15,177 bases of DNA from the NCBI GenBank assembly GCA_016839515.1, contig JAEOUE010000232.1, positions 1 through 15,177 on the forward strand, given 5' to 3'. The translations under genes were made by a program, and so were the position numbers. Position 1 is the first letter of the stretch. Every line of letters starts with the position of its first letter. Of this stretch, positions 1 through 15,177 are shown in pieces. The notes under the pieces were generated by a model. That model saw only the letters and a list, made by a program, of their open reading frames with translations, did not search any database and had not been told where the DNA came from. Source of the stretch: Candidatus Hodarchaeum mangrovi (lineage in GTDB: Archaea; Asgardarchaeota; Heimdallarchaeia; Hodarchaeales; Hodarchaeaceae).

Positions 1-47
1 AACAAAAAATAAACTACAATACTTTGAATTTTAGCGGAAAATTTTGG

Positions 48-482
48 TTATTCATTTGAAGAAATCTCAGGGTTAGTATCATCGTAATCAGGAACACGAG
101 TAATAATTTTTTGCCAAGGTTCTAACACTTCTCGAGTAATTTTAATTCTTTTTGTTGCAGCTTTTCTTCCTTTATCGGTCATAATAATTTTTTTTCTTTG
201 CCTTTTTTTGTAAGGATTCTCTTTAATGGTTATCCATCCAGCTGATTCAAATTCTTGGAGAATTGGGTAAATCCTATTCGGACCTGGTTCCCAACGCCCA
301 TCTGTATGTTCTTTAATCAAAGCCATTAATTGAAAACCATTATCAGCTTTTCCTTGTTTGATTAAATGAAGCATAATTAAGCGTAAAAAACCCTGTTTAA
401 TACGGGATTCAAATTTTTGTACTAATTTTTCCTCCAAATCAGTAATATTTTCGTTCTCCTGATCAAAAACCACTTTTGACAT
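48..482 (-). CDS. PadR-family winged-helix transcriptional regulator (short type)
   Basis: 144 aa with PadR pattern: GFLRLIMLHLI, NGFQLMALIKE, WEPGPNRIYPILQEFESAGWI, RKKIIMTDKG. ATG preceded by SD-like AGGGGA. Confidence 0.9.
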   Translation of the reverse strand: MSKVVFDQENENITDLEEKLVQKFESRIKQGFLRLIMLHLIKQGKADNGFQLMALIKEHTDGRWEPGPNRIYPILQEFESAGWITIKENPYKKRQRKKIIMTDKGRKAATKRIKITREVLEPWQKIITRVPDYDDTNPEISSNE

Positions 483-542
483 ACAATCCCCTTAAATTAA
501 TTATATTAATCAGACATTTCAAGAAAAATTTAAATATTCCTG

Positions 543-560
543 ATTTGGATATATCCAGAT
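543..560. promoter_or_regulatory. Palindromic operator-like site 1 (ATTTGGATATATCCAGAT) between divergent padR and SDR
   Basis: Perfect 12-bp palindrome TGGATATATCCA at 546-557. The same core recurs in three other intergenic regions. Confidence 0.75.
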
Positions 561-563
561 TTA

Positions 564-578
564 AAAGAAATTTTTAAA
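564..578 (+). promoter_or_regulatory. Candidate archaeal BRE-TATA promoter of the SDR gene
   Basis: Purine-rich AAAGAAA followed by TTTTTAAA, about 55 nt upstream of the start codon. Confidence 0.4.
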
Positions 579-633
579 GCTAAAAAATCATGTTCAATAG
601 ACTTTACCAAGATTTATTTCGAGATGATTATTA

Positions 634-1443
634 TTGAAATTTCTAGAAGATACAGTAGCAATGATCACCGGAGGAGCACAGGGTTTAGGTCTAGCAATAG
701 CTGAAGAATTAGCAAAAGCTGGTGCAAAAATAGCTATAGTTGATATAAATGAATCTAAACTCAATGAAAGTATAAATAATTTAAAATCATTAGGACACAA
801 AGTTTATGGTGTTATTTGTGATGTTTCAAAGACTGATGATGTTGAAAGAGCAGTAAAAGAAGTTTTGAAACAGTTTAAAAAGATAGATATATTGATTAAC
901 AATGCTGCAATTGCTCCAGATACTCCTTTTCTTGAATGTTCTTCTGAGCAATGGGATAAAGTTATGGCAATTAATCTCAAAGGCTATTTTAATTGTTCTC
1001 AATCTGTAGTCAGGCATATGATAAAAAATAATATTAATGGTAGAATTGTTAATTTAACCTCAACATTAGGTCTGAGGCCTAAAGCAAACTTAGTGGCTTA
1101 CACAACTTCAAAAGGAGCTATAATCAATTTAACTCAAACAATGGCAGTAGAATTAGGAGAATATGGAATTCGAGTAAATGCAATAGCTCCTGGAATGATT
1201 GATACTCCAATGACCGCTAAAGGGTTTATAAATCCGATGATAAAAAATATCATCTTAGGTGGAATACCAATGAAGCGATTAGGTACACCAGAAGAGATAG
1301 GAAAAGCTGCTGTTTTTCTAAGCTCTGATTATTCATCATTTGTGAGTGGAACTATACTTGTAGTAGATGGAGGACAAAATGCTGGAATGCCTTCACGGAT
1401 TCAAAGATCACCAGATGTCAAAGAAGGACATCTTACACCTTAG
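634..1443 (+). CDS. Classical short-chain dehydrogenase/reductase (FabG-like, probably NAD(H)-preferring)
   Basis: TGGAQGLG (TGxxxGxG), Asp after beta-2 (VDIN), NNAA, catalytic YTTSK, NAIAPG, VDGG. TTG start with SD-like GAGATGA. Confidence 0.95.
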   Translation: MKFLEDTVAMITGGAQGLGLAIAEELAKAGAKIAIVDINESKLNESINNLKSLGHKVYGVICDVSKTDDVERAVKEVLKQFKKIDILINNAAIAPDTPFLECSSEQWDKVMAINLKGYFNCSQSVVRHMIKNNINGRIVNLTSTLGLRPKANLVAYTTSKGAIINLTQTMAVELGEYGIRVNAIAPGMIDTPMTAKGFINPMIKNIILGGIPMKRLGTPEEIGKAAVFLSSDYSSFVSGTILVVDGGQNAGMPSRIQRSPDVKEGHLTP

Positions 1444-1540
1444 AATTTAAATTATTTCTAACTTAAACGGTATTATTACTTTACTAAGAACAATTATTAA
1501 TGCAATGGATTGCAAATACAAAAAAATAAATCAAAATTAT

Positions 1541-1554
1541 AAAAAATAAAAAAA
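1541..1554 (-). terminator. Oligo-T archaeal terminator downstream of the repeat surface-protein gene
   Basis: Minus strand reads TTTTTTTATTTTTT about 27 nt after the stop. A second T-tract lies near 1520-1530. Confidence 0.5.
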
Positions 1555-1580
1555 GGGGATGGGATATTAATTTGAAGACT

Positions 1581-3803
1581 CTATCTTCTTCGTCTGTTGA
1601 AAATGATGATTACTCCAATCATCGAGAAGACTAAAAGTCCAAATTCGAATCCCGATACCGATGGAGAGGTAGTTGTTGTAGTCGTTGTTCCTGTAGTTGT
1701 AGGTAGCGTAGTTGTTGGAGTAGTCGTAGTATCAACAGGTGGTGTACCCGCGGCTAGTTTAATTTCTGAAGGAGTACCAAATCCCATCATTTGGATCCAG
1801 AATCCTTTGAGGTGAAATTCTACAACAGAGCCAGTAGATCGATCCCAGATCATTCTTAGGAGAGGGCCTCCCATAAGGGAACCAGATTGATAACCAAATT
1901 GCGTAGCAGTGCTAATTATAATATATCCTTTAGCAGCATAATAAAGCTGCCAATGATTCCATTCCATTGTTTTAACATATCCCATGAGCATAACTTCAGG
2001 AGAGCTAACTGTTCCGAAAACGAATTTTCCATAAACTGTAGTGCCCATCATAGATGTATTAATTGTAGTAATTTCGATATAGAAATAATCACCTTGACTA
2101 ATCGCTGAATCTGGAGCGTCGGGATAAGCATATGATCCATCAGTTATTTCCATACCATCGGCATCTAATAGAACAGCCCATTGTAGATGAATTTTATCGC
2201 CAACAGAGACTCCATAGGTGGGTACGGAAACATATCGATCAATTCGTATTTCCTTAACAGTACCGAAGCCCATCATATTAGGCCACATGCCTCTGAGTTC
2301 CCAAGTGAGCATAGCACCATCAACAGCATCCCATCTGAAACGCATATAATTAGGATCGGAAGCATTGTCACCATAAACATATTCAAAGTATTCTGCTGTC
2401 CAGTTTACACCATAACCCCGTGATATATAGTAATCTTCCCAGTATTCCCAAGTGTAGTTCCATGATGCCATCGGTTTGAAATAACCCATAAGGTATACTT
2501 CTCCAGTAGTTGCTCCATTTGCAAATGTAAATTCACCATAAACTGATGGTGTAAGCCCACTCATTCCCATAGTCATATTAACTGTTAATACTTCAAGATA
2601 GAAGTTATCTCCTTGGGAAATCATGGAATCATTCGCATCAGGATAAACAAATGAGCCATCTGTAATGGGTAAACCATCAGCATCTTTAAGAGAAGTCCAT
2701 ACAAATTCATATTGGTCTCCTACAAAGACGTTAAAGTGGCCCTCATGGGGAGCTTTGACCAATCTAATCTCAGATACAGTTCCAAATCCCATCATGTTAA
2801 CCCAAAATCCACTCAAATGAAAATCTACTACAACCCCTGTAGAACGATCCCAAACAGTTGTTAAACCTGATCCAGTATCATATCCAAATTCAGTGGCGGT
2901 ATCAATTATAGTATATCCCTTTGCAATATAATAAAGCTGCCAATGAGACCATTCACGACTTTTAACATAACCCATGAGAATAACTTCGGGAGTAGTCTCG
3001 TTTCCAAATATAAATCTTCCATAGGCAACAGTACCCATCATTGATGTATTGATTGTTGTTATTTCGAGGATAGATGTGTCTCCTTGACTTATTGAAGAAT
3101 TTGGTGCGTCTGGATAGGAATATGAACCATCTGTTATTGGAAGACTATCTGCATCGAGTAGGATATCCCACTTTAGATAGATTCTATCACCTTCTGATAC
3201 GCCATAATCTGTGACAGATTCATAACGGGTAATCTCAATTTCAGAGAGAGTTCCAAATCCCATCATACCAATCCAAAAGCCATGTAATTCCCATTCTAAC
3301 ATAGCTCCAGTGCTATTTTCCCAGCGGAATCGCATATAGTTAGGACTGCTGTCATTTTCATATTCATATTGGAAGTATTCAGAAGTCCATGTTACATTGT
3401 AACCATTGCCTTCATAATAGGTTTTCCAATAAGTCCAATTATAGGTAGAGGAATTCATAGCTTTGAAGTATCCCATTAATGCTACTTCATCAGTCGTTGA
3501 TCCGTCCGCAAAGGTAAAATGACCAAAAGCGGTTGGAGAATCGGAAGTTATATTAATGGTGTCAATTTCTATGTAGAAGTGATCTCCTTGTGAAATCGAT
3601 GAATTCGGAGCATCAGGATAGGAATAAGAGCCATCAGTAATATCAAACCCATCAGCATCCTTTAAAGAGGTCCAAACGAATTCATATTGATCTCCAACAT
3701 CAACGTTAAAATGCCCTTCATGTGCAGCAACACGTGTGATGCTTAATGAAGTCAAGCTAACCATCAACAATGCTAGAACCAATATTAGATTTCTACTTTT
3801 CAT
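1581..3803 (-). CDS. Secreted, C-terminally anchored surface protein (probable glycoprotein) with four tandem Met/Trp-rich domains (A-B-A-B)
   Basis: Likely start is ATG 3803 (MKSRNLILV, SD-like AAGATGA; 740 aa) rather than TTG 3872. Signal peptide ends VAA/HEGH. Four ~155-180 aa repeats, Thr/Pro linker, then SGFEF + TM helix + RRRR (PGF-CTERM-like). Many NxS/T sequons. Confidence 0.88.
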   Translation of the reverse strand: MKSRNLILVLALLMVSLTSLSITRVAAHEGHFNVDVGDQYEFVWTSLKDADGFDITDGSYSYPDAPNSSISQGDHFYIEIDTINITSDSPTAFGHFTFADGSTTDEVALMGYFKAMNSSTYNWTYWKTYYEGNGYNVTWTSEYFQYEYENDSSPNYMRFRWENSTGAMLEWELHGFWIGMMGFGTLSEIEITRYESVTDYGVSEGDRIYLKWDILLDADSLPITDGSYSYPDAPNSSISQGDTSILEITTINTSMMGTVAYGRFIFGNETTPEVILMGYVKSREWSHWQLYYIAKGYTIIDTATEFGYDTGSGLTTVWDRSTGVVVDFHLSGFWVNMMGFGTVSEIRLVKAPHEGHFNVFVGDQYEFVWTSLKDADGLPITDGSFVYPDANDSMISQGDNFYLEVLTVNMTMGMSGLTPSVYGEFTFANGATTGEVYLMGYFKPMASWNYTWEYWEDYYISRGYGVNWTAEYFEYVYGDNASDPNYMRFRWDAVDGAMLTWELRGMWPNMMGFGTVKEIRIDRYVSVPTYGVSVGDKIHLQWAVLLDADGMEITDGSYAYPDAPDSAISQGDYFYIEITTINTSMMGTTVYGKFVFGTVSSPEVMLMGYVKTMEWNHWQLYYAAKGYIIISTATQFGYQSGSLMGGPLLRMIWDRSTGSVVEFHLKGFWIQMMGFGTPSEIKLAAGTPPVDTTTTPTTTLPTTTGTTTTTTTSPSVSGFEFGLLVFSMIGVIIIFNRRRR
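1750..3722 (-). repeat. Intragenic tandem duplication: repeats start near 3722 (A1), 3206 (B1), 2747 (A2), 2216 (B2)
   Basis: All four share DAD..ITDGS(Y/F).YPDA..S.ISQGD, EV.LMGY.K and W..MMGFGT..EI. The identical 19-mer ATAATAAAGCTGCCAATGA occurs at 1938-1956 and 2928-2946. Confidence 0.92.
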
Positions 3804-3993
3804 TGTAATCATCTTTAAACTTGTTAAAAACATAAAAATAATTCTATTCTTAGAATTATGTTCAAGATTCAAGTCAATTTCTACTTATTTAAAAGTTTAA
3901 TGTCTAAATTAAGATCACAATAAAGAGAATAGTTTTAGAAAAGAATAGAAGATGATCAATTAATATTAAAATAATGTTTCTAAAGTTTTATAT

Positions 3994-4009
3994 TTTTGAT
4001 ATATCAGAA
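3994..4009. promoter_or_regulatory. Palindromic operator-like site 2 (TTTTGATATATCAGAA) upstream of the repeat surface-protein gene
   Basis: Perfect TGATATATCA at 3997-4006 with near-symmetric flanks; intergenic. Confidence 0.7.
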
Positions 4010-4168
4010 TTTGACCTATAATGTAGTAATTTATACCAAATGCTGAACAAAATAATTTTAAAAAATAATTAAGAATGAAAATTATCTAATTTAATGAATA
4101 ATCTAACGGAAGACAATTTTAATTAAATAAAACAACCAATTCACTATTTTATTTGTTCTTATGATTTA

Positions 4169-4507
4169 TTACCTCTGTTTAAAAATAATATGGTTTTTAT
4201 CCTTTAATCTGAGCAAAAAAGTAGATAAAGAAGTTCGAACACTTGATTCAGATTGATCTGCTTCAACAATTAATAATCTTTCAATCTCTCGTACTGATTT
4301 ATCACCTAAACATAAAGTCCAGATGAATTCCCCTAATTCATCTATAATGAAAACTTCTGAGTTTTTATTCAGTAAAAATTTTTTACCAGGTTCCCAATAG
4401 CCAAGTTTTGTCGTTGTTTGTTGTATAGGGAATAAATGAGATAATTGAATGTCATCACTAGGAATTGGGAGTGAATCTTTAGGATTAGCGTTATCTTTAG
4501 AGTTCAT
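4169..4507 (-). CDS. Stand-alone PqqD-family / RiPP recognition element (RRE)-like protein
   Basis: LLNKNSEVFIIDELGEFIWTLCLGDKSVREIERLL...SLSTFLLRLKDKNHI matches the PqqD pattern. ATG 4507 preferred; TTG 4528 is possible. Confidence 0.8.
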   Translation of the reverse strand: MNSKDNANPKDSLPIPSDDIQLSHLFPIQQTTTKLGYWEPGKKFLLNKNSEVFIIDELGEFIWTLCLGDKSVREIERLLIVEADQSESSVRTSLSTFLLRLKDKNHIIFKQR

Positions 4508-4542
4508 ATAACCACTTATTTTGTACAAAAAAGAAAAGAAGA

Positions 4543-5493
4543 TTATTGTAATCTTCTTCTTTTAATAATAAAGAAAACTGAGAATAATGCTAATGATGTT
4601 AAGAATATTGTTGTTTCAAAGCCTGGTGATTTTTCTGGTGGGATATAGGATTCAGTTCCTTCAGTGTAAGTTGTGATAGTAACCGTAGTATTAGAAATAA
4701 CTGTTTCTATTGTAGTAACGTATTGTACAGGTTTTAATGTAATTTTGCCCCATGTTGATTGATCTGAGAAATTTGCTTCACTAGGCCAAGCACAATACGG
4801 TCCTTCATCAGGTTCTGCTTCTTCAGAATCGTTAACAGATTTGTAAGCATTAATGTAGACTCCCATAGTAAATGGAAAAGTTTCAACACCTAAATTAGAA
4901 AGTGGAATTTTAAAGGAGAACATACCGTGTGGATTTGGTTCATTCCAAGAACTTTGATAAAATCCCCACAGTTGTAATGGGGGGATTAGTCCTGATGGAG
5001 GCATATTATGGCAAACACTAATTGTAAATCCTTCTTCTTCCTCAGTTTCTGGATCAATTGTTTTATTATAAGCAACTTGTTGACTAAAATACACATGATT
5101 TGCTCCAAAGACAGTAAAATAATATTGATCTGTGAGATGTGTAGTAATGTTATCATTTTCAGCGTCGAAAGCGATTTGAGCGTAATCTAACCGTATTTGT
5201 TGTTGTACATAGATAGAATCTACTAGGACGTAAAGAAAAGTCTTGTCATGGGCTAAATATGCGATGGCACCTTCTAAAGTTTGGTTTTCGTAGTTTTCTG
5301 AAGGGCCTAGTTCAACCATAGTCACATTTTCTGCATCTGTACCAACCCAATGTTCCTCTTTCAGATTTCCGACAGAAATGAAGTGAGTAGAAGGCACAAT
5401 GTTTAAAGTTAATGGTTCAGCTGCATGAGTGACTGAGGCACTGATCAATGATAAAGTTATTATAACGAAGAAAACTATGTTTATCTTTTTCAT
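4543..5493 (-). CDS. Secreted surface protein with DOMON/CBM9-like beta-sandwich and PGF-CTERM-type anchor
   Basis: Signal peptide MKKINIVFF...THA; AYLAHDKTFLYVLVD, DYAQIAFDAEND, HGMFSFKIPLSNLG; Thr-rich linker; SPGF + TM + KRRR. ATG 5493 with SD-like GAGTTGA (TTG 5499 alternative). The domain call is from motif resemblance only. Confidence 0.72.
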   Translation of the reverse strand: MKKINIVFFVIITLSLISASVTHAAEPLTLNIVPSTHFISVGNLKEEHWVGTDAENVTMVELGPSENYENQTLEGAIAYLAHDKTFLYVLVDSIYVQQQIRLDYAQIAFDAENDNITTHLTDQYYFTVFGANHVYFSQQVAYNKTIDPETEEEEGFTISVCHNMPPSGLIPPLQLWGFYQSSWNEPNPHGMFSFKIPLSNLGVETFPFTMGVYINAYKSVNDSEEAEPDEGPYCAWPSEANFSDQSTWGKITLKPVQYVTTIETVISNTTVTITTYTEGTESYIPPEKSPGFETTIFLTSLALFSVFFIIKRRRLQ

Positions 5494-5584
5494 TTTCAAT
5501 TCAACTCAATTTTTAGGATGGTTCGACTTAATTTTTTGAATGATGGTCTCTATTAATTACAGTCGAAAAGTTTCGATTAAAATT

Positions 5585-5600
5585 TATTAAAACTTTTCGT
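5585..5600 (-). promoter_or_regulatory. Candidate BRE-TATA promoter of the DOMON-like/PqqD unit
   Basis: Minus strand ACGAAAAG-TTTTAATA resembles archaeal BRE + TATA. Confidence 0.5.
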
Positions 5601-5603
5601 AAA

Positions 5604-5634
5604 GTCTGATATATCCAAAATATATATATCGAAA
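5604..5634. promoter_or_regulatory. Operator-like site 3 (GTCTGATATATCCAAA) plus adjacent degenerate copy (TATATATCGAAA) in the divergent promoter region
   Basis: GATATATC core at 5608-5615; second near-core TATATATC-GAAA at 5623-5634, offset by 15 bp. Confidence 0.68.
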
Positions 5635-5674
5635 TTATAGTTATTCTTACAAAAATCTGTAGGAAAAGATCATC

Positions 5675-6430
5675 ATGTCAATCGACATTTCAGAATTGAA
5701 AAATAATAATATCAAAGTCATTTTTGAAAACCAAGAATTCACTTATCAGAGAAAGGGGTTACCATCCTCTATTTTTGATTTACTTACTAAATATCGTGTA
5801 AATTCTATTGAAGGAATGGTCAACCAGTTTAAGACCAATGAAGATGGTTTACTTCGCAGAACTTCAACAATGTTGCACTCACCACCAGTAGCTACACGGT
5901 CTCCTAATGGTTATTTTCCCATTAATACGGCAGCTAAAGGGATAGGATTTATTCCTAAAGAAGAATATTTGGAAGAATTTGTAGTGCAATTTGAAAATCT
6001 AATTGATGAAGCAATTGAAAAAGGCTCTGATTTTAATCGTGATGAGCGTTTAAATGCCTTGTTAAATTTTTATAAATCCAAAGAAAAGATTACTAATTAT
6101 AAACTTGGGACATTAGAATTATATGGATTAAGAACTTGGAGAAATATTCAATATGATCCTCGAGTTTCTATCTTATATAATTCTACAGAAAGTCAAGAGG
6201 GTGGAGGTCGACCAAATTACATTTCGTTTGAAGTAAAAGGAATCATAGAAATAATTGAGAAAGATACTTTAGCCTGGCGATGGCAACGTAATGTACATGA
6301 TATATTTCACTTATATCGTGCAAAAGAAAGACGAGCTGGAAATTGGCCAGTAGCAGTTTTAAATATCCATGTCCTAGAAACTATTGATAAACGTCCAGGA
6401 GAAAATGCTAGCAAAGAAATTAATATTTAA
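5675..6430 (+). CDS. PNPOx-like (FMN/heme-binding split-barrel) protein
   Basis: C-terminal LELYGLRTWRNIQYDPRVSILY...SFEVKGIIEII fits the T..N+..+P.V.+ split-barrel signature; N-terminal PPVAT strand. Confidence 0.7.
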   Translation: MSIDISELKNNNIKVIFENQEFTYQRKGLPSSIFDLLTKYRVNSIEGMVNQFKTNEDGLLRRTSTMLHSPPVATRSPNGYFPINTAAKGIGFIPKEEYLEEFVVQFENLIDEAIEKGSDFNRDERLNALLNFYKSKEKITNYKLGTLELYGLRTWRNIQYDPRVSILYNSTESQEGGGRPNYISFEVKGIIEIIEKDTLAWRWQRNVHDIFHLYRAKERRAGNWPVAVLNIHVLETIDKRPGENASKEINI

Positions 6431-6457
6431 TTGGATAAACTTGTTGTGAGAAAAAAA

Positions 6458-7900
6458 ATGCAGGAATTATTGGTAGAAATTATTCAGGAAACTCGAAGTA
6501 TTGGAATAAATCATATTGATGCAAGATATGTGAAGGATTATTACGAGATATTCAATGCAAAAAACGGGAACCCTGAAAGATTATCGGAATCATATCGTTC
6601 TGGAGTAGGATTTCGTGTTTTTTTTAATAACTACATGGGTTTTGCTTCAACAAATAACCTTGAAAAGAGTTCATTAAAGAAAACAGTTAAAATGGCTTTA
6701 AAAATTGCTAAATTAACAGAAGGAAAGACTAAAAAGAAGAAAATATTTCAAGAGGAGAAAGAGGTTCATGATAAATACATCACTCCAACAAAAATAGATC
6801 CCTTTTCAGTAGATATTGAAGAAAAGATAATTCCGCTTTTAGAATGCACTAAACTTCTAGCTGAAAAAGATGCTCAAATACGGAATGCTACTGCCTCTAT
6901 GATGAATAGAAAATATTCTACATTGTACATTTCCTCTGAAGGTTCAATAATTGATCAAATACTAATTCAATGTGGTGGAAGTATTACAGGTATGCTCATG
7001 GCAGGTCCTGGAGGGATGTTTGTTAGAACTGCTGAGAATTATAGAGCTCAGGGTTTAGAATTTATTGAAGAATTTGATTTAATAGAACAAGCAGAGACAA
7101 TTGGTAATGATTTAGTTGTATTAAGGGAAAAAGCTATAACAGTCCCTAATGGGAATTATAATCTAATATTAGAACCTAGTCACTTAGGATTGGTAATTCA
7201 TGAGAGCATTGGACATCCTACAGAACTTGATAGAATATTAGGAAGGGAAGCTGATTTTGCAGGTACTTCATTTATAGAAAAAGACTATTTAGAAAATTCC
7301 TTTCGATATGGTTCTGAATTAGTAAATATTATTCATGACCCGACCCTTACTCCCGCATTGGGTACATATGGATATGATGATGAGGCTACAAAAGCTCATA
7401 GAATTAATATCGTTGATCATGGCATTTTAAGCGCATTCCAAAGTGGTAGAAGTACTGCTTCAGAAATAGGAATTGAATTAATAAGTGGTAATGCAAGAGC
7501 ACATGGACATGATCGCGTTCCAATTGATAGAATGGCAAATCTTTATTTTGATCCTGATCCTAAGCTCGCACTTTCCAATTTTGATGAATTAGTCATGGAG
7601 TCAAAAAAGGGAATTTATGCAATGTACTCAAAAACACATTCAATTGCTCCAAATCGATCAAATTTTCAATTTACAACTCAAATGGGATATTTAATTGAAA
7701 ATGGGGAATTAACTAAACCACTGAAAAGTATCGTGTATGGAAGTAGAACACTTGATTTTTGGAAAAATTGTGTAGCTACTACAAAGGATGTAATAATTTA
7801 CGGTACTCCAAATTGTGGAAAAGGAAATCCAGGTCAAACAATTTGGACATCACATGGAGGTCCTTATTCTTTGTTCAAAAATGTTCGTATAGGGGTTTGA
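6458..7900 (+). CDS. tldD: TldD metalloprotease, catalytic subunit
   Basis: GVGFRV, HESIGH (HExxGH) at 7199-7216, YGYDDEA, GNARA, RMANLYF, C-terminal CGKG Cys ligand. ATG 6458 preferred to TTG 6431. Confidence 0.93.
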   Translation: MQELLVEIIQETRSIGINHIDARYVKDYYEIFNAKNGNPERLSESYRSGVGFRVFFNNYMGFASTNNLEKSSLKKTVKMALKIAKLTEGKTKKKKIFQEEKEVHDKYITPTKIDPFSVDIEEKIIPLLECTKLLAEKDAQIRNATASMMNRKYSTLYISSEGSIIDQILIQCGGSITGMLMAGPGGMFVRTAENYRAQGLEFIEEFDLIEQAETIGNDLVVLREKAITVPNGNYNLILEPSHLGLVIHESIGHPTELDRILGREADFAGTSFIEKDYLENSFRYGSELVNIIHDPTLTPALGTYGYDDEATKAHRINIVDHGILSAFQSGRSTASEIGIELISGNARAHGHDRVPIDRMANLYFDPDPKLALSNFDELVMESKKGIYAMYSKTHSIAPNRSNFQFTTQMGYLIENGELTKPLKSIVYGSRTLDFWKNCVATTKDVIIYGTPNCGKGNPGQTIWTSHGGPYSLFKNVRIGV

Positions 7901-7902
7901 AA

Positions 7903-9294
7903 ATGACAACAGAGTTATTAAATCAGTCCCCACAAGATTTGGCTAATGAAATTATTAGATTAGGTTTAAATACAGGCGCACAAGAACTTCAAGTCAAGAT
8001 TAGAGAAACAGAAGCAAATTATATTCGTTTTGCTAATTCAGAAATTCATCATTTCTCATCTAATCTCATTAAAGAGATAAATATAACTAGTTTGATCGGG
8101 AAAAAAAAAGGGATTTTAACCATAGTACCAACGAATGATGAAGATATTATTTTTGGTATTCGCCAATTGATTAAACTAACGAAAACTAATTTTGAAGATC
8201 CAAATCAACTTCCTTTTTTAGAATCTAGATATCACTATAAAAGTTTAGATACTTTGGATCCACTATTTACTTCATTTGATCAATCCAAATTAATTGAAAT
8301 TGTTGATTCTGCTATTAAAACAGCACATGAATATGATAAGCGCGTTTCGAACGTTAGTGGAATGTTACAATCCTTGAAACACCAATATTATATAGAAAAC
8401 AGTAATGATTTACAATTACAATCCCACCAATCAGAGTATTGGTATGGGATAGATGTTTTAGCTCAAGATAATTTAAGCTTTGGACGTAATTCACAAGGGG
8501 AGACAAATCGTTTCAGTAGAAATATCCCATTCGTAGAATTAGCCGAACTAGCTGCTAAATATGCTATTCTGGGATTGAATCCAATTAAGCTTGAACCTGG
8601 TGATTATCCAGCGATTTTGGATTATTATGCTACTTTTGAACCTCTAGTATTTCTTAATCTAAGTCTGAGTGGAGTTTTTGTGATTCAACATCGGAGCTTC
8701 CTTGCACAAAAATTAGGATCAAAAATCTTCAATAGTAATTTCAACTGGCAACATGTTCCCTATTCCACTAATATTGTTACATCAAAACCTTTTGATGACG
8801 AGGGTGTTCCAACAAAAGAATTCTATTTTATAAAGGAAGGTATATTGGAAAATTTTGCTCATAATCGTTGGTCATCATCTAAAATGGAAGTAGATGCAAA
8901 TGGTTGTGGTTATGAATCTGAAAGGACTTCTTTTGGTATTCCAATAGCTACAAAACTTATTCCTTCAGAGAACCATACCTTGAACGATTTAATCAAATCT
9001 GTTGACAATGGGGTATTCGTTTCGAGACTTTTTTATTCCAATTGGGCAAACCCAATGGCTGGAATCCTCACTGGAACAACTAGAAATGGATTTTTTAAGA
9101 TTAAATCTGGCGAAATCACTGAATCATTGTATCCAATGCGACATACCACCTCAATCTTTGAAATGTTTGGTGAAGGATTAGAAATAGGTAATCAATTACA
9201 TCAACCTCCAATGCAAATGATGCCTGGAGTCCAATCAATCCTTTTGCCTGCGGTGATATCACCAAAATTACACTTAACAACATACGCAAATTAG
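7903..9294 (+). CDS. pmbA: PmbA/TldE non-catalytic partner subunit
   Basis: IRFANSEIH, LEPGDYPAIL, PFDDEGVP, TGTTRNGFFKI; no HExxGH. ATG 7903 with SD AGGGGT, 2 nt after the tldD stop. Confidence 0.9.
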   Translation: MTTELLNQSPQDLANEIIRLGLNTGAQELQVKIRETEANYIRFANSEIHHFSSNLIKEINITSLIGKKKGILTIVPTNDEDIIFGIRQLIKLTKTNFEDPNQLPFLESRYHYKSLDTLDPLFTSFDQSKLIEIVDSAIKTAHEYDKRVSNVSGMLQSLKHQYYIENSNDLQLQSHQSEYWYGIDVLAQDNLSFGRNSQGETNRFSRNIPFVELAELAAKYAILGLNPIKLEPGDYPAILDYYATFEPLVFLNLSLSGVFVIQHRSFLAQKLGSKIFNSNFNWQHVPYSTNIVTSKPFDDEGVPTKEFYFIKEGILENFAHNRWSSSKMEVDANGCGYESERTSFGIPIATKLIPSENHTLNDLIKSVDNGVFVSRLFYSNWANPMAGILTGTTRNGFFKIKSGEITESLYPMRHTTSIFEMFGEGLEIGNQLHQPPMQMMPGVQSILLPAVISPKLHLTTYAN

Positions 9295-9315
9295 CCATTA
9301 ATTAAGTGATTTTAG

Positions 9316-9819
9316 ATGCCAACTGCAATTGTTTTCGCAGCACATGGAAGTCCACCATTAGATTTTCCCAAAAAAGAATTGAGTGAGTTTTTTTCTCTAC
9401 ATGATAAACAAAATAGAACTACTGAGGAAACAACGCGTTTTAAAGCTTTAGAATCGAAAATGCTGAATCATTTTCGAAATGAACAAAATGATCCATATTT
9501 CTTTGCTACATATGACATCGCCAAGAATTTGGAAAGAAAAACAGAAATGAAAGTTTTTGTCGGATTTAATGAGTTTTGTAAACCAACTATATCAGAAGCT
9601 ATAGATAAAGCCGTAGAATCAGGGAATAATGTCATTTTAATTGTAACACCGATGTTGACTAGAGGAGGAAGTCATGCTGAAAAAGATATTCCTGAAATCA
9701 TTGATAAATGTCAAAATAAGTATTTGAATGTAACTTTTACTTATGTTTGGCCATTTAATCCCGTCTATATAGCTGAATTTCTACATCAACAAATAAAAGA
9801 ATCAATACAAGGACGTTAG
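9316..9819 (+). CDS. cbiX: CbiX/SirB-type class II chelatase, single-domain (CbiXS-like) with an insertion
   Basis: AAHGS, GFNEFCKPTI, PMLTRGGSHAEKDIP; both metal-binding histidines are present. Confidence 0.88.
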   Translation: MPTAIVFAAHGSPPLDFPKKELSEFFSLHDKQNRTTEETTRFKALESKMLNHFRNEQNDPYFFATYDIAKNLERKTEMKVFVGFNEFCKPTISEAIDKAVESGNNVILIVTPMLTRGGSHAEKDIPEIIDKCQNKYLNVTFTYVWPFNPVYIAEFLHQQIKESIQGR

Positions 9820-10559
9820 CAACGAGGAATCTGAACATCACTATTCGTTAACTCAACAATGATTCTTGCTTGATCTCTTGTTATTTGTCCATCTCTTAAC
9901 CAGCAGATTCGATCTGCAATATCAATCAGTTTTAGGTCATGAGTTGTATTTATTACAGTTACTCCCGTCTCTTTATTTAATTTCTGAAGCAATTCGACAA
10001 TTTTCATACCAGTTACTAGATCCAAATTAGCTGTCGGTTCATCAGCAAGAATAAGAGATGGTTTATTGACAATTGCTCTTGCAATTGCCACTCTTTGTTG
10101 TTGTCCTCCCGATAATTCAGTTGGAAGATGATTCATTCTATCATGCAGTCCCACTATTCTTAATACTTCCTCTGATCTCTCTTTTATTTCCTTTCTTGGC
10201 TTTCCTGCGAGGAGTAGAGGGAGACTTACATTATCTAAAGCTGTTAGTGAATTAATCAAATTAAATGTTTGAAACACAAATCCAATTTTAAAGACTCTTA
10301 ATGACGATAATTCTGTTCTTTTCATATCTGAAAGTGGTAATCCATCAATAAAACATTCGCCTTCATCTGGAGTGTCCAAAGCTCCAATAATATTGAGAAA
10401 AGTTGTTTTTCCTGATCCAGAAGGTCCCATAATAACAATATAATCTCCTTGATAGATTTTTAGGTTTATCCCCTTTAATGCATGAATTTTTTCTTCACCC
10501 AATAAAAAAAACTTATGGATATTTTCTGCTTTTACCGTTACGTTCTTCATCTCACTCAA
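9816..10559 (-). CDS. ABC ATPase, MacB/LolD/SalX-type (copy 2)
   Basis: Walker [10 protein letters not shown]-loop [25 protein letters not shown]-loop THD. Confidence 0.95.
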
Positions 10560-11317
10560 ACTCTATTTAATTCTTCAGAAGGGGCCTCATAAGCTCTTTC
10601 ATCTGATAAAATCACTTTAACATTGTGCAACTGTTCTATTCGTTTTATTTTTCCATCTGCTATCCAAATAATTCTATCTGAAACATCTATCATCTTTAAA
10701 TCGTGGGTGGCCGTTAAAATTGTTGTACCATGTTCGGTATTTAATCTTCTGAGAAGATTTATAATTTCAAGTCCAGTTTCTAAATCAAGATTCCCCGTTG
10801 GTTCGTCTGCTAATATGATTGCAGGATCATTAACTAATGCTCGAGCTATTGCCACTCTTTGTTGTTGTCCCCCACTGAGTTGTGCTGGACGATGATTCAT
10901 TCGATCAGTAAGGCCAACTAGCCCTAAAACTTCTTCTACTTTTTTCTTACGAACCTCACGAGATCTTTTAGCAAAAATTGCTGGCATTTCCACATTTTCA
11001 AATGCTGTAAGATTAGGAATGAGATTGAATGTCTGAAAAATGTATCCAATTTTCCTACATCGAAGCCATGCTAATTCATAAGCATCCAATTTTGCTATAT
11101 CAACTTCATCAATGTAAACCCGTCCTTGTGTTGGCTTATCTAATCCCCCAACACAGTTAAAGAAGGTTGTTTTTCCTGATCCCGATGGTCCCATCAAACT
11201 GACATATTCACCGTGTTTAATCTCAATTGAGATTCCTTTCAATGCTTCAATTTCTGTATCCCCCATATGGTATACACGATGAACATCTTCTGTTTTTAAT
11301 GTGAACTGAAAACTCAT
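10556..11317 (-). CDS. ABC ATPase, MacB/LolD/SalX-type (copy 1)
   Basis: [42 protein letters not shown] 11317 with SD-like AGGCGA; 4-nt overlap with the next gene. Confidence 0.95.
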   Translation of the reverse strand: MSFQFTLKTEDVHRVYHMGDTEIEALKGISIEIKHGEYVSLMGPSGSGKTTFFNCVGGLDKPTQGRVYIDEVDIAKLDAYELAWLRCRKIGYIFQTFNLIPNLTAFENVEMPAIFAKRSREVRKKKVEEVLGLVGLTDRMNHRPAQLSGGQQQRVAIARALVNDPAIILADEPTGNLDLETGLEIINLLRRLNTEHGTTILTATHDLKMIDVSDRIIWIADGKIKRIEQLHNVKVILSDERAYEAPSEELNRV

Positions 11318-11327
11318 TTTTATTCGC

Positions 11328-11939
11328 CTATGTTTTACGTAGAGCATCAGCAGGATTCATTCGTGAAGCTCCAATTACTGGAATAATTGAAGCAATTAAA
11401 GTTAGAAATGTTGACAATATTGTCCCAAGTATTATTATAATTAAATAAAATTCAAAATTGTGTTCAATTAGTTGTAATATTTCCTTTAATGGAAATTCAA
11501 TTCCACTTAACCCCATTCCTAATAATACTCCAAGTATTGACCCTATAAATCCTGATATGATTCCAATAAAGAGACTTTCGAACATGAAAAGCTTAACAAC
11601 GTGTACTGGCATAGTTCCTAAAGTCATATAAGTACCAATCTCTCTATTACGTTGACCTACTTCCATAAACATACTATTCATGACACCTACAACACATAGT
11701 AAAAGTCCTACAAAGAACAAATAGCTTTGTTCTCGTGCTATGTTGGAAGTAGGGTCAAAAAAGTCGATAATCGTGGAATAAGTGATAAGAGTAACAATAA
11801 AGGATATTCCAAGAATTACTCCTATTCCTGTTATGATTGATCTCCCTTTACGTTGTTGTGTATTCTTCAGTGCATGTTTCATTGCTGTCCAAGCGCTATA
11901 CTTGGTATTAGGTAACCCTAATCGATTCAACTTTACCAT
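11328..11939 (-). CDS. Minimal FtsX/MacB-family (type VII) ABC permease lacking the extracytoplasmic domain
   Basis: RKGRSIITGIGVILGI (TM1), NSMFMEVGQRNREIGTYMTLG, FESLFIGIISG, ASRMNPADALR. Only about 15 residues separate TM1 and TM2. Confidence 0.9.
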   Translation of the reverse strand: MVKLNRLGLPNTKYSAWTAMKHALKNTQQRKGRSIITGIGVILGISFIVTLITYSTIIDFFDPTSNIAREQSYLFFVGLLLCVVGVMNSMFMEVGQRNREIGTYMTLGTMPVHVVKLFMFESLFIGIISGFIGSILGVLLGMGLSGIEFPLKEILQLIEHNFEFYLIIIILGTILSTFLTLIASIIPVIGASRMNPADALRKT

Positions 11940-11956
11940 TTTTCTTCCTCTGTGTA

Positions 11957-12319
11957 TTAATGTTCATCTTCCTGAATATCTGTGATTCGGTGGGTTTCTT
12001 CTATAATCATTGACCAGCGAATTTTCTTTGTTATTAATAATTTTAAATGATTAACCAACCGTTTTCGGGTATCCTCCTCTCCTAATTGTGTTGCATTCCA
12101 TGTAACAAATGGAGAATAAAATCTTGCGAGTTCTAATACTGGTTGATCATCAACAATTATGAATTTAATAAACCCTAATTCACCCAGGAAACACGATGCA
12201 TTAGGACAGAGGATATCAATTTCTCTCTGTTCCTTCTTTAAAAAAAGAATATTATATTTTGATTCATCCTCTATCTTATACCCACACGGACATTGAACCG
12301 TTACATCGGTAGTTGTCAT
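11957..12319 (-). CDS. Small soluble Cys4 (CPC...CPNASC) putative Zn-binding protein, first gene of the ABC operon
   Basis: 120 aa, ATG with SD-like AAGGA, 17 nt from the permease gene. Four Cys in two knuckle-like pairs. Confidence 0.75.
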   Translation of the reverse strand: MTTTDVTVQCPCGYKIEDESKYNILFLKKEQREIDILCPNASCFLGELGFIKFIIVDDQPVLELARFYSPFVTWNATQLGEEDTRKRLVNHLKLLITKKIRWSMIIEETHRITDIQEDEH

Positions 12320-12440
12320 TAAACATACGTCCTTTTCAGATATAAAATTTTAAAATTGTGGCTTTATTAAAATAACATGTAAAAAATTGATTTATGATCG
12401 ATTTACTCGTTTTATTAAAAAGAATTTAACTGTTCTGTAT

Positions 12441-12456
12441 TTTGGATATATCGAAA
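12441..12456. promoter_or_regulatory. Palindromic operator-like site 4 (TTTGGATATATCGAAA) upstream of the ABC operon
   Basis: GATATATC core at 12445-12452 with TTT/AAA symmetric flanks; intergenic. Confidence 0.72.
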
Positions 12457-12493
12457 TTTGTAATATTTTAATATACCAATTATAATCATCATC

Positions 12494-13894
12494 TCAATGA
12501 TGTCGTTTTGGTTTGCCTAAAACTCTCATTCTTGATACTCTAATCTCAGGAAAACGGGTATAATAAGCATCATTTACTTCTTTACCTATTGCTTCCACCA
12601 TTGACAACAGTTCAAAGGCATTTCCAAATATTGTAATTCTATTAGTTGGTCTAATAGTTTCATCATTTTTAATATGATATGCTTCGGTTGAGCTAAGTTC
12701 AAAATCACCGTTTATTATGTCAAAATAGTTAATTGAGGCGATTCCATCCACTTTAACTCCCCTTTTAATATTATTCAGAGTTTCACCACGTAGTTCCTCA
12801 TTACTATTCAAAGTTAGATTTGTTAAGGCTATTTGAGGGGGTCTTCGGTGGATAGTAAAATCATTCAATAGAGGTAATCCTCGTAAAGTATTTCCACTTG
12901 GTGTTTTACCAGTTTCAATGGATGTTTGCAAGTCAATTGGATAATTTTGAATTTTCCCATTTTGAATTAATACAAGATTCTTAGTTGGAACTCCTTCATG
13001 ATCAAATGGATGGGCACCAATTCTTAATGGATTATTAGCTTCTTCACTTAAGATTATATGTTCTGAAAATGATAATTCTCTTAATTTGGAAATTAGAAGT
13101 TTATCCTCAAACATTCTTGAGAGCAATGGTCTAAAAATAAGATCTCCTAATTGGCACATAGCTCTGGAGCTAAAGACTATTGGATATATCTGGTTTGCTT
13201 TTACATCTGAACCTTTTAAATAGGGTTGTAAATCGTTTAATCTCTTTTCAATAAAAGTTTCATAATTAAATTCTTTATTATGTTGGATATGACCGAGATT
13301 TCCTTCAAACGTTAAGCTTCTTTTTGTTCCTGCCACTAATTGAACTGCCAATTGAAATAAAGTATTCTTATATACAAGTTCAACTTCATTTGTATTAGTC
13401 AATAAAACATGGGTTTCTTTAATTGTATGTACCCCCGATTTAATAAATAAAGCAGACTTATGAGTTTGAACTGTTTCCTGAATTTTTTTAATAGAGGATA
13501 CAATCTCTTCTAATTTCATATCTCTTAATTCATAATCATAATTAGATCTTGAAAATTTATCAAGATCAATAAATTGAGGTGATGAAAATTCAAAGGGTTG
13601 TTGTAAATAAGCATTGGCTTCCTCTCCTGTGAATGAAGCAATATGTTCTTCGATTTTAGAGAAATTTGTATCATCAATTGCTTGAAAATACATTAGAGAG
13701 TTTTTCTGATAACGTATTCCAAATCCTTTCTCAATAATGGTTTTTATGTCAAAGATCTTTGATGAAGAGAATGTCACCGTTTTAAGTTTATTATAGCAAG
13801 CAAATATTTCTGCTGAGCTGGCACCTAGGTTTAAAATGGAGTTTAAAATTCGTTTTGATTTATCAAAAGCACTATTAGTTATTTCTGAATTCAT
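12494..13894 (-). CDS. Divergent PmbA/TldE-like subunit (second pair)
   Basis: AEIF, EKGFGIR, PFDHEGVP, SGNTLRG, IINGDFELS. ATG 13894 with SD-like GGTGG; the TTG 13990 extension overlaps the upstream gene. Confidence 0.85.
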   Translation of the reverse strand: MNSEITNSAFDKSKRILNSILNLGASSAEIFACYNKLKTVTFSSSKIFDIKTIIEKGFGIRYQKNSLMYFQAIDDTNFSKIEEHIASFTGEEANAYLQQPFEFSSPQFIDLDKFSRSNYDYELRDMKLEEIVSSIKKIQETVQTHKSALFIKSGVHTIKETHVLLTNTNEVELVYKNTLFQLAVQLVAGTKRSLTFEGNLGHIQHNKEFNYETFIEKRLNDLQPYLKGSDVKANQIYPIVFSSRAMCQLGDLIFRPLLSRMFEDKLLISKLRELSFSEHIILSEEANNPLRIGAHPFDHEGVPTKNLVLIQNGKIQNYPIDLQTSIETGKTPSGNTLRGLPLLNDFTIHRRPPQIALTNLTLNSNEELRGETLNNIKRGVKVDGIASINYFDIINGDFELSSTEAYHIKNDETIRPTNRITIFGNAFELLSMVEAIGKEVNDAYYTRFPEIRVSRMRVLGKPKRHH

Positions 13895-13911
13895 TCTTTC
13901 CACCAACACAT

Positions 13912-15177
13912 CTAATTTAGTACTTTCAATCTTTCGAAAAACATAGGAGGAGCGATTGATCCTGAAATTAGCCCTCCACCCTTTGTACAAAATATTGTTG
14001 TAGGAACAACATTCTTGCCAATAAGCTTCAATCTTTTCATAAAGTCATCAATAGGATAATTAATGTCCACATTAAGGTATAAATCTTTACTTACTTTTCC
14101 CTGACTGATTATTCTAGACTGTTCAGGAACAATTTGAATTTTGTTGTTATCCCAATCAATATAAATAAAATTAATCCCCTGACAATAAATTCCAATATCC
14201 ACTTCAGTAATTAATTGTTCTAAATTATAATCACCTGATTCTACAACTAAATTAGTACAAGCTGGGAATGAAGGATTTGTGAAGGAAGAGAAACGTGCAT
14301 TGTGAGTATTAGAACATTTTAATAATCTTGATGTTTTTGAATCAGTTATAAAGGTGATAATCTTTCCTTTTTCAATGATCAATGACTTCTCTGTTTGATA
14401 TCCCTCTGCATCATAATATGTTTGGGGTAAAAGGGGGAATTTTTTCATGACAGGGACGTCATAAATAGTTAATAACCCAGAAAAAACCTTTTTTTCAGTT
14501 TTTTTCCAAGGACCGGTTGTTAATGCAACATCTCCCTCAATTCCATGCATTAGTTCATGAATGATTCTACCTACAGAGGATCCATCAAAAAGAACATTCA
14601 TTCGTTCCTTTGGAGGATTATTTACTATTAAAGTATTTAATAATCGTGATTTTCTCTTTTCAATAAATTCTTTTGCTGTTTTCGGATCAAAATTTAATTT
14701 ATTTAACCTTCCACAATAATAGCTTGTTCGAACAATCCTTTTTTTGGCGTATGTAACCTCATTAGTTATTTGAATTTTAAAATCCTCAACTGGATGAGTT
14801 ATATAATACTCATCTGAATCAAAATAATTCCATAATCCAGATCGATCAGAATAATGGACAGTAGTTATAATCGGTCTCTCAGAGTTCTGGGGAGTGAAAT
14901 TTCTAATGAAATTTAACTTATCTCTTGTCGAAATTTGTTCATCTAAATTATTAATTAACTTTCGTTGAGAGGTTTGTTTATTTAATACTTGATATTGCGA
15001 CTTAAAACTTTTTGATTCCTTAAGTAGGTTAGCTGATTCAGCAGCATTATTGATCAATTCCTCAAGGGCAGCTTCTGAATTAATGGTCGTACTACTTTGT
15101 CCTTGGACTCCATCGATCCAAACACTCAATAATATTTCACTAATATTCTCTCCTTGGATCCACGTTTTTTTACCTTG
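13912..15177 (-). CDS. Divergent TldD-like protein (second pair), 5'-truncated by the window edge
   Basis: Frame stays open from 15177 (QGKKTWIQGENISEILLSVW...). IIHELMHGIEGD, YDAEG, HNAR, CTNLVVESGD, C-terminal CTKG. Confidence 0.87.
   Translation of the reverse strand, partial: QGKKTWIQGENISEILLSVWIDGVQGQSSTTINSEAALEELINNAAESANLLKESKSFKSQYQVLNKQTSQRKLINNLDEQISTRDKLNFIRNFTPQNSERPIITTVHYSDRSGLWNYFDSDEYYITHPVEDFKIQITNEVTYAKKRIVRTSYYCGRLNKLNFDPKTAKEFIEKRKSRLLNTLIVNNPPKERMNVLFDGSSVGRIIHELMHGIEGDVALTTGPWKKTEKKVFSGLLTIYDVPVMKKFPLLPQTYYDAEGYQTEKSLIIEKGKIITFITDSKTSRLLKCSNTHNARFSSFTNPSFPACTNLVVESGDYNLEQLITEVDIGIYCQGINFIYIDWDNNKIQIVPEQSRIISQGKVSKDLYLNVDINYPIDDFMKRLKLIGKNVVPTTIFCTKGGGLISGSIAPPMFFERLKVLN

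Follow-up and report, generated by a model that had tools for sequence, protein, structure and literature searches.

Which protein reads the short palindrome that recurs at the gene starts of one archaeal locus, and does it join the locus into one system? The locus lies on contig C182 (15,177 nt) of Candidatus Hodarchaeum mangrovi; this whole stretch is here called the window, and its genome (4.0 Mb, 33% GC) is labelled G000. An earlier note on the window had proposed that the PadR-family regulator encoded at 48-482 governs the locus as one system, and enrichment, conservation and co-occurrence of the element mostly support this at the level of sequence. The element is a 23-bp pair, (G)ATATATC-N7-GATATAT(C), rather than a lone 16-bp palindrome. 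We consider it the putative operator of this PadR, governing padR and about nine transcription units, with a probability of roughly 0.78. The support comes from sequence: the copies form a pair with a fixed step of 15 bp, the pair is confined to these promoters and is conserved there, and it also precedes padR and padR homologues. Binding of the pair by the window PadR is predicted, and very likely. Relatives are labelled by handles: G002, G004, G013 and G019 are sister genomes, and f1, f3, f4, f12 and f20 are families, f20 from another Asgard class.

The paired element in the window and in related genomes

The octamer GATATATC is found five times in the window (at 548, 3998, 5608, 12445 and 13183), where 0.51 copies are expected, and none of 200 shuffles of the window reaches five. 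As the earlier note had described, four copies lie one in each of the gaps that precede gene starts (483-633, 3810/3873-4168, 5500-5674 and 12320-12493), the convergent gap at 1444-1580 contains none, and the only other copy is inside a coding sequence, that of a pmbA-like gene. The degenerate tandem copy reported beside 5608 is also present, TATATATC at 5623-5630, but it is not special to that site: all four promoter copies have a companion at 15 bp, with scores of 5, 5, 7 and 5 out of 8. The copy at 13183 has none (best 3/8). The 16-bp consensus proposed for the palindrome, TTYNGATATATCNRAA, is exact at two of the four sites but has one mismatch at the other two. When orthologous gaps are aligned, a second, weaker copy is seen 15 bp from the main octamer, and the symmetrised consensus of 18 operators (G019 E, which spans two contigs, is excluded) is the 23-bp pair given above. 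The symmetry of the site may be centred on the 7-bp spacer and not on the octamer.

At a distance of 15 bp, a companion of at least 6/8 accompanies 12 of the 18 cluster cores, compared with 0/18 other intergenic cores and 2/115 coding cores; at any other offset from 9 to 30 bp it is found at no more than 3/18 cluster cores. The octamer alone was rejected as a promoter mark, its density across G000 being about equal in intergenic and coding DNA (41.8 and 33.5 per Mb; 24 of 139 copies are intergenic). The view that the palindrome marks promoters holds for the pair but not for the octamer by itself: a pair score of at least 13/16 is reached in 8 of 1403 promoter-type gaps of G000, six of these eight in the cluster (two of the six on the neighbouring contig C38). 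The coding mask of the genome is the output of a simple open reading frame (ORF) caller, and the 16-point score was derived from the cluster sites themselves, which makes this specificity count partly circular. Support free of this circularity comes from a matrix of the four window sites, because the two intergenic C38 sites that it ranks first and third genome-wide lie on a contig whose synteny with the window was established only afterwards.

Two other matrix matches, C75:7553 and C94:2356, were dropped, as they lie at contig ends in AT-rich frames missed by the ORF caller (read by eye). A shorter pattern, ATATC-N7-GATAT, was unselective in G000, with 18 coding and 5 intergenic matches. The sole gap outside the cluster that has a perfect core and a 5/8 companion is G000:C45:781-963, flanked by the genes of an ABC ATPase and of a 224-aa protein.

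The element is also conserved at orthologous loci. In the padR-bearing genomes G000, G004 and G019, all 19 operator slots score 13-15/16, 18 of them with a perfect core. Genome-wide matches to the tandem pattern fall inside the cluster in 6/6 cases in G004, 2/2 in G000, 2/2 in G013, 1/1 in G002 and 2/3 in G019. Operator A (Table 1) is retained before padR in both G004 and G019, and in G019 also before the relocated SDR gene. Operator B scores 15/16 in G004 and 14/16 in G019, and operators C and D are kept in all five cluster-bearing genomes. The six operators of G000 serve about nine transcription units; the six units proposed earlier are those of the window, but the regulon extends into C38 and probably into contig C300. 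Among 83 genomes of the class, five have a close orthologue of the PNPOx-like marker gene, and all five belong to this genus. A sixth genome has a 30% match to this marker in a different gene context, and scans of metagenomes and genome contig collections for further loci found none.

Table 1. Genes and predicted operators of the cluster; positions refer to the window unless a contig is named.
Feature	Position	Strand	Remarks
PadR-family winged-helix regulator	48..482	-	144 aa, single domain, candidate operator reader
Operator A	533..555		AATATTCC-N7-GATATATC; between divergent padR and SDR
SDR	634..1443	+	Pfam adh_short_C2
Secreted/surface protein 1	1581..3809	-	two internal repeats, C-terminal membrane anchor, no family match
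Operator B	3998..4020		GATATATC-N7-GACCTATA; upstream of surface protein 1
PqqD/RRE-like protein	4169..4528	-	PF05402 28.2 bits, cut-off 23.4
Secreted/surface protein 2	4543..5499	-	no family match
Operator C	5608..5630		GATATATC-N7-TATATATC; between divergent surface protein 2 and PNPOx-like operon
PNPOx-like (pyridoxamine 5'-phosphate oxidase-like) protein	5675..6430	+	Atlas feature score 0.95 to PNPOx-named clusters
TldD (HESIGH motif) and PmbA, pair 1	6431..9294	+
CbiX-like chelatase-fold protein	9316..9819	+	Pfam PF01903
Operon of 120-aa Cys-containing protein, FtsX-type permease piece and two ABC ATPases	9816..12319	-
Operator D	12445..12467		GATATATC-N7-GTAATATT; upstream of 120-aa/ABC operon
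PmbA and TldD (HELMH motif), pair 2	12494..15177	-	tldD start on C38; unit begins at operator E
Operator E	C38:12743-12765		outside window; start of the unit of tldD-pmbA pair 2
Further C38 site	C38:5246		among the six G000 cluster operators

The PadR protein and the promoters of its homologues

The window PadR matches PF03551 of Pfam with 48 bits (cut-off 27). Its AF2 model has a pLDDT of 83 and long first and last helices (7-41 and 102-128), and the best Foldseek matches of the model are PadR-family structures, 3F8B, 1XMA and 9QBC. On this model the protein is a single domain with a C-terminal dimerisation helix, as in PadR subfamily 2 (LmrR type). It resembles these proteins in size, in fold and in the long helices around the winged helix, but the identity is only ~20-24% and its targets are not a single drug pump. 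The family hallmark is two signature tyrosines and a basic wing residue (PMC5728393). Matched to the Bacillus subtilis protein (BsPadR) by motif position, the recognition-helix tyrosine (IYP) and the basic wing residues are invariant in the homologues; the first signature tyrosine, again by motif position, is Phe in the window PadR and Tyr in the seven other full-length homologues. A shared basic residue before IYP was rejected as specificity determinant, as proteins with LIYP/LVYP or TLYP (TRASH type) and SIYP/SLYP (f20) carry the same word. Close homologues of the window PadR bear the source labels Candidatus Hodarchaeota or Hodarchaeales.

Full orthologues were found in 2 of 60 relatives, G004 and G019, and a search of 400 genomes of the phylum returned no others. 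In both genomes the pair precedes padR by 45 to 75 bp, so that together with the window 3/3 orthologues have the predicted operator in their own promoter. In G019 padR has been relocated to another contig, apart from the SDR gene, and each of the two retains a site. Among 30 PadR-family loci (of 35 matches) in the four sister genomes, a perfect core with companion is found only at the two orthologues.

The word also follows more distant homologues. The two best from another class, found by protein similarity alone, have upstream scores of 15 and 14, and a profile that includes them finds a large PadR clade in 110 of 135 f20 genomes. Among the 25 best further f20 loci by protein score, which come from few genera and are not independent, 17 score at least 13/16 upstream and 14 at least 14; dinucleotide shuffles of the same upstream regions give means of 0.18 (maximum 2) and 0.03, respectively. 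A pattern scan of 61 f20 genomes gives 31 distinct loci, of which at least 12, counted by hand, are directly upstream of a listed PadR match. In an 81-row PadR tree the window clade (7 rows) has support of 99/99 and the f20 clade (27 rows) of 99/97, with the TRASH clades separate. Taken together, PadR proteins are accompanied by the word throughout the phylum; for G000, the candidate with the word in its upstream region is the window protein. Co-occurrence with PadR, which the earlier note had proposed to check, stands for the 3/3 orthologues and for 17/25 f20 homologues but not for G002 and G013, which have operators without padR (see below).

A rigid one-spacing rule was tried and rejected; it holds in f12 and in this cluster but fails in f20. 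In 41 rows from the window's own class, spacers of 5 to 9 bp are found 2, 1, 19 or 20, 13 and 5 times (hand count). Two PadR paralogues 5 kb apart in G158:C139 (L169:8262-8300 and 13062-13082) each head an ABC operon, one with a 16+15-bp triple array and the other with a 14-bp pair. In f3 and f4, intergenic GATATATC pairs with an 8-bp spacer occur at orthologous places (L227:2182, L228:2688, L229:2645, L230:2771, L231:2810 and L232:2479), and no PadR gene is found in the 5-kb stretches examined there.

How the pair may be read, and by which protein

If the window PadR reads the pair, we slightly favour a single dimer centred on the 7-bp spacer, which would recognise TAT-N9-ATA. The weaker arm keeps its inner G in 15/18 sites and its outer C in only 5/18, and none of the 18 cluster operators has a third copy on the far side of the strong arm; it is for these reasons that we prefer this geometry. 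The f20 sites show the same pattern, with the inner G kept in 12/14 and the outer C in 1/14. The half-site is TAT/ATA and not the canonical TGT/ACA of PadR/RosR operators; GACATATC variants are seen in G004 E, G019 B and several TRASH loci.

The mode of control can be modelled on B. subtilis PadR, which binds a palindrome, represses, and leaves on binding phenolic acids (PMC5728393). By analogy, the window PadR would probably repress by occupying the TATA/start region, from which a ligand would release it, and the gene annotation alone hints that a peptide breakdown product could act as inducer. The operators abut or overlap TATA-like words: operator A is flanked by such words at 529 on the + strand and at 566 on the - strand, and the weaker arm of operator C overlaps one at 5621. 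Words of this kind are common in AT-rich DNA, so repression can only be inferred.

Like the B. subtilis PadR/padC system (PMC5728393; PDB 5X11), the window system would be a winged-helix PadR dimer on a palindromic operator; BsPadR, however, belongs to the two-domain subfamily 1 and reads TGT-N8-ACA, whereas the window PadR is short, single-domain and paired with TAT-N9-ATA within a doubled octamer. RosR of Halobacterium salinarum is likewise an archaeal PadR/MarR-type regulator with a defined operator of ~25 bp, but it reads TGT-N10-ACA and acts in oxidative stress on dispersed targets (PMC7145548), whereas the targets in the window form one physically clustered locus.

The same regulator could also read the pair as two sites. 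Each octamer with its TTY/RAA flanks would then bind one dimer, as the earlier note had drawn it, and the second copy would bring in another dimer by cooperative binding on the opposite side of the helix. We give this a serious chance, somewhat short of even. In its favour, nearly all octamers are perfect, with symmetric flanks; the companions are weak at three window sites; and f20 PadR genes are preceded by triple arrays and by steps of 14, 15 and 16 bp. The unequal upkeep of the inner G and outer C in the weaker arm, in the cluster as in f20, speaks against it. So do the solved PadR-type operators, which need ~25 bp and whose half-sites are separated by 8 to 10 bp (PMC7145548).

Several observations weigh against assigning the pair to the window PadR. 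Three of the four window operators have a companion of only 5/8, and 8 of the 25 f20 homologues, themselves drawn from few genera, score below 13/16. Spacers of 5 to 9 bp are found in 4, 4, 13, 12 and 6 of 39 f20 rows, so a rigid spacer-centred dimer fits poorly there. The word is shared by several PadR clades, including the copper PadR-TRASH proteins, and the tree leaves the relations among these clades unresolved at its deep forks. In G019, the promoter of a C160-type PadR paralogue reaches 13/16 (7+6), without a perfect core. Finally, G002 and G013, which lack padR, keep operators C and D at 14-15/16.

The state of these two genomes (assemblies 91 to 93% complete) can be read in more than one way. 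In G013 the SDR gene and the 5' two-thirds of padR are lost and the last 51 codons remain (G013:C55, L074:4188-4358); the 51-aa remnant has its own stop and is identical to a homologue at 37/51 residues (73%). In G002 the remainder of padR is gone too (G002:C31 near 23900-24000), apparently between two short TTATAATC repeats. The loss of the regulator can be seen as stepwise, partial in G013 and complete in G002. The loss looks recent because of the 73% identity of the remnant, and relic sites would then be expected; the persisting operators are ambiguous rather than refuting. Two of the four testable operators are kept, and operators B and E are lost (11 to 12/16, B at 11/16) only in this padR-less pair.

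Persistence of C and D without padR would also be seen if the operators were read by another regulator encoded elsewhere, for example a C160-type PadR paralogue, with the local PadR only a target. G000 has 12 PadR-like matches, the word is common to several PadR clades, and the C160-type paralogue, present in all five cluster genomes, has a promoter that scores 12/16 in G000, beside the 13/16 of G019. We still find this unlikely. The word moves with padR in G019 and tracks its homologues in another class, and the selective loss of B and E in the padR-less pair argues in the same direction. The C160-type genes (L260, L264, L268 and L269) have a separate conserved upstream palindrome, GGAAACC-TATATA-GGTTTCC, which is probably the operator of that paralogue. 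Repeated GAATATT words precede yet another PadR-like gene (G000:C174 upstream of 5726, L263 and L273), whose product in G000 has a CC pair near its end.

The PadR-TRASH proteins are also poor candidates for such a reader, as this clade was found neither in the 21 f1 genomes searched nor in G000. PadR proteins with a Cys-rich TRASH tail occur in 14 of 83 genomes of the class, and in other families of the class the same word precedes CopA, CopB and CopZ genes. At 5 of 16 TRASH-type loci the fetched stretch contains a pair of at least 13. In f12 (19 genomes) all 13 variable-gap matches have a 6-bp spacer, i.e. a 14-bp step, and 5 of 6 annotated loci lie at PadR-TRASH or copper ATPase genes. These Asgard copper regulators resemble the window system in the octamer, in its pairing and in its position upstream of regulator and targets. 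They differ in the Cys-rich tail, in adjoining CopA/CopB/CopZ and in the 14-bp step of f12, whereas the window system has a PadR without cysteine, a 15-bp step and peptidase targets. The window protein thus has no C-terminal Cys-rich tail, and none of the eight G000 gaps scoring at least 13/16 lies on C53, the contig of the CopA-like gene. Because the protein has no cysteine and the copper ATPase promoter no pair, the window regulator is, judged by sequence, not a copper regulator of the PadR-TRASH type.

In another reading, the second arm is a TATA box beside a TFB recognition element (BRE) and only the octamer is the PadR site; PadR might then aid TFB/TBP recruitment, that is, activate. Several weak arms are TATA-like (TATATATC, GTTATATA and GGTATATA) and the spacers are purine-rich, but we hold this reading to be quite improbable. 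At site D the perfect arm is not the same one in all orthologous positions, some weak arms, such as GACATATC of G004 E, do not resemble a TATA box, and several f20 promoters have, by eye, a separate TATA-like word upstream of the array. Chance occurrence in AT-rich intergenic sequence can practically be dismissed, as can a general promoter element: at 33% GC the 139 octamers of G000 show no intergenic enrichment, and at a looser threshold of 14/16 with any core a spacing of 15 is unremarkable (10 genome-wide matches against 3 to 7 at other spacings), but a perfect core occurs in only 0.7% of the promoter-type gaps outside the cluster, and the conservation across genomes and the homologue test are far above shuffles.

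Cargo of the cluster and wider meaning

The cluster spans contigs C300, C182 (the window) and C38, roughly 30 kb. The end of C38 encodes the apparent start of the tldD truncated at the right end of the window; there is no sequence overlap, and the join rests on the translation and on synteny: in G004:C101 and in G002:C31 the two parts are found on a single contig. On the other side, window 1-305 overlaps the end of C300 at 99% identity, and the few substitutions at this assembly break suggest strain variation. A second padR copy on C300 was rejected, as C300 merely overlaps the window there. Downstream of padR and in the same direction, C300 encodes homologues of HMG-CoA synthase, thiolase and the small partner subunit of thiolase.

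For surface protein 1 the ORF finder starts at 3872, and the ATG at 3809 agrees with the starts of the orthologues. This protein has two ~370-aa repeats in G000 and a single copy (~420 aa) in G004, G002 and G013. The RRE-like gene lies 14 bp downstream of surface protein 2 and, given this short gap, is probably co-transcribed with it. The PNPOx-like protein matches Pfam PNPOx_N only at E=0.064, and its single-sequence fold is uninformative (pLDDT 34). C38 adds a third TldD/PmbA pair, three M28 peptidases, an FtsX/MacB permease and a 781-aa membrane protein, which has no match in Pfam or NCBIfam and which we presume to be OPT-like. Paralogues of a ~370-aa family without known function (L001:1691-2824 and 4078-5181) alternate with the M28 peptidases on C38, and G004 and G019 have three; C38:4078-5181 has only weak PNPOx-like Atlas matches (score ~0.8). 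A paralogous module on G000:C97 (L130:4074-19955) has a membrane protein, a 1472-aa FtsX-like protein, two ABC ATPases, an FtsX piece and a 120-aa protein; it adjoins apparent sugar-catabolism genes and has no octamer.

From this gene content we lean, by a small degree, towards a cluster that captures, transports and degrades some class of peptides. The absence of any family match for the 781-aa membrane protein and for both surface proteins counts against this, peptide uptake being read from gene content alone. In E. coli, TldD/E shortens unfolded peptides from their N-terminal end (PMC5810440), and it shares with the cluster the pairing of TldD with PmbA/TldE and the metal motif on the TldD subunit; all three cluster TldD proteins carry the HE..H zinc-type motif and the three PmbA proteins have no such motif. 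The cluster differs in having three pairs together with M28 peptidases and an RRE, and neither a microcin-type precursor nor a maturase was recognised. Besides the RRE and TldD/PmbA, no maturase (YcaO, radical SAM) for a ribosomally synthesised and post-translationally modified peptide (RiPP) was found among the scanned window and C38 proteins; ORFs below 55 aa were not searched for a precursor, and a RiPP cluster is not shown.

As far as the sequences go, the system is an ordinary autoregulated PadR regulon under ordinary prokaryotic one-component control. We found no published PadR operator or sequence-level PadR regulon in Asgard archaea, in a search that left subscription papers and supplements (operator tables) largely outside. 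The novel elements are a regulator without a TRASH tail, its peptidase cluster, a pair with a 15-bp step, a large clade in f20 and regulator deletions that arose naturally. A broader and rather doubtful idea is that Asgard PadR clades with unrelated C-terminal sensors, which may include TRASH copper tails, long helical tails and the short form of the window, read the same GATATATC arm, and that a spacer of 6, 7 or 8 bp, set by dimer geometry, picks the regulator. The peptide-capturing locus (~25-30 genes) would then be a counterpart of polysaccharide utilisation loci, constitutive in relatives in which the regulator is deleted.

The result is a concrete predicted protein-DNA pair from Hodarchaeales, a lineage near eukaryotes, that can be approached with one small recombinant protein. 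The word predicts targets for the large PadR clade of 110/135 f20 genomes. In Ca. H. mangrovi itself, the shared operator would unite about 25 genes, most of them uncharacterised, in a single functional unit and so narrow the search for its substrate.

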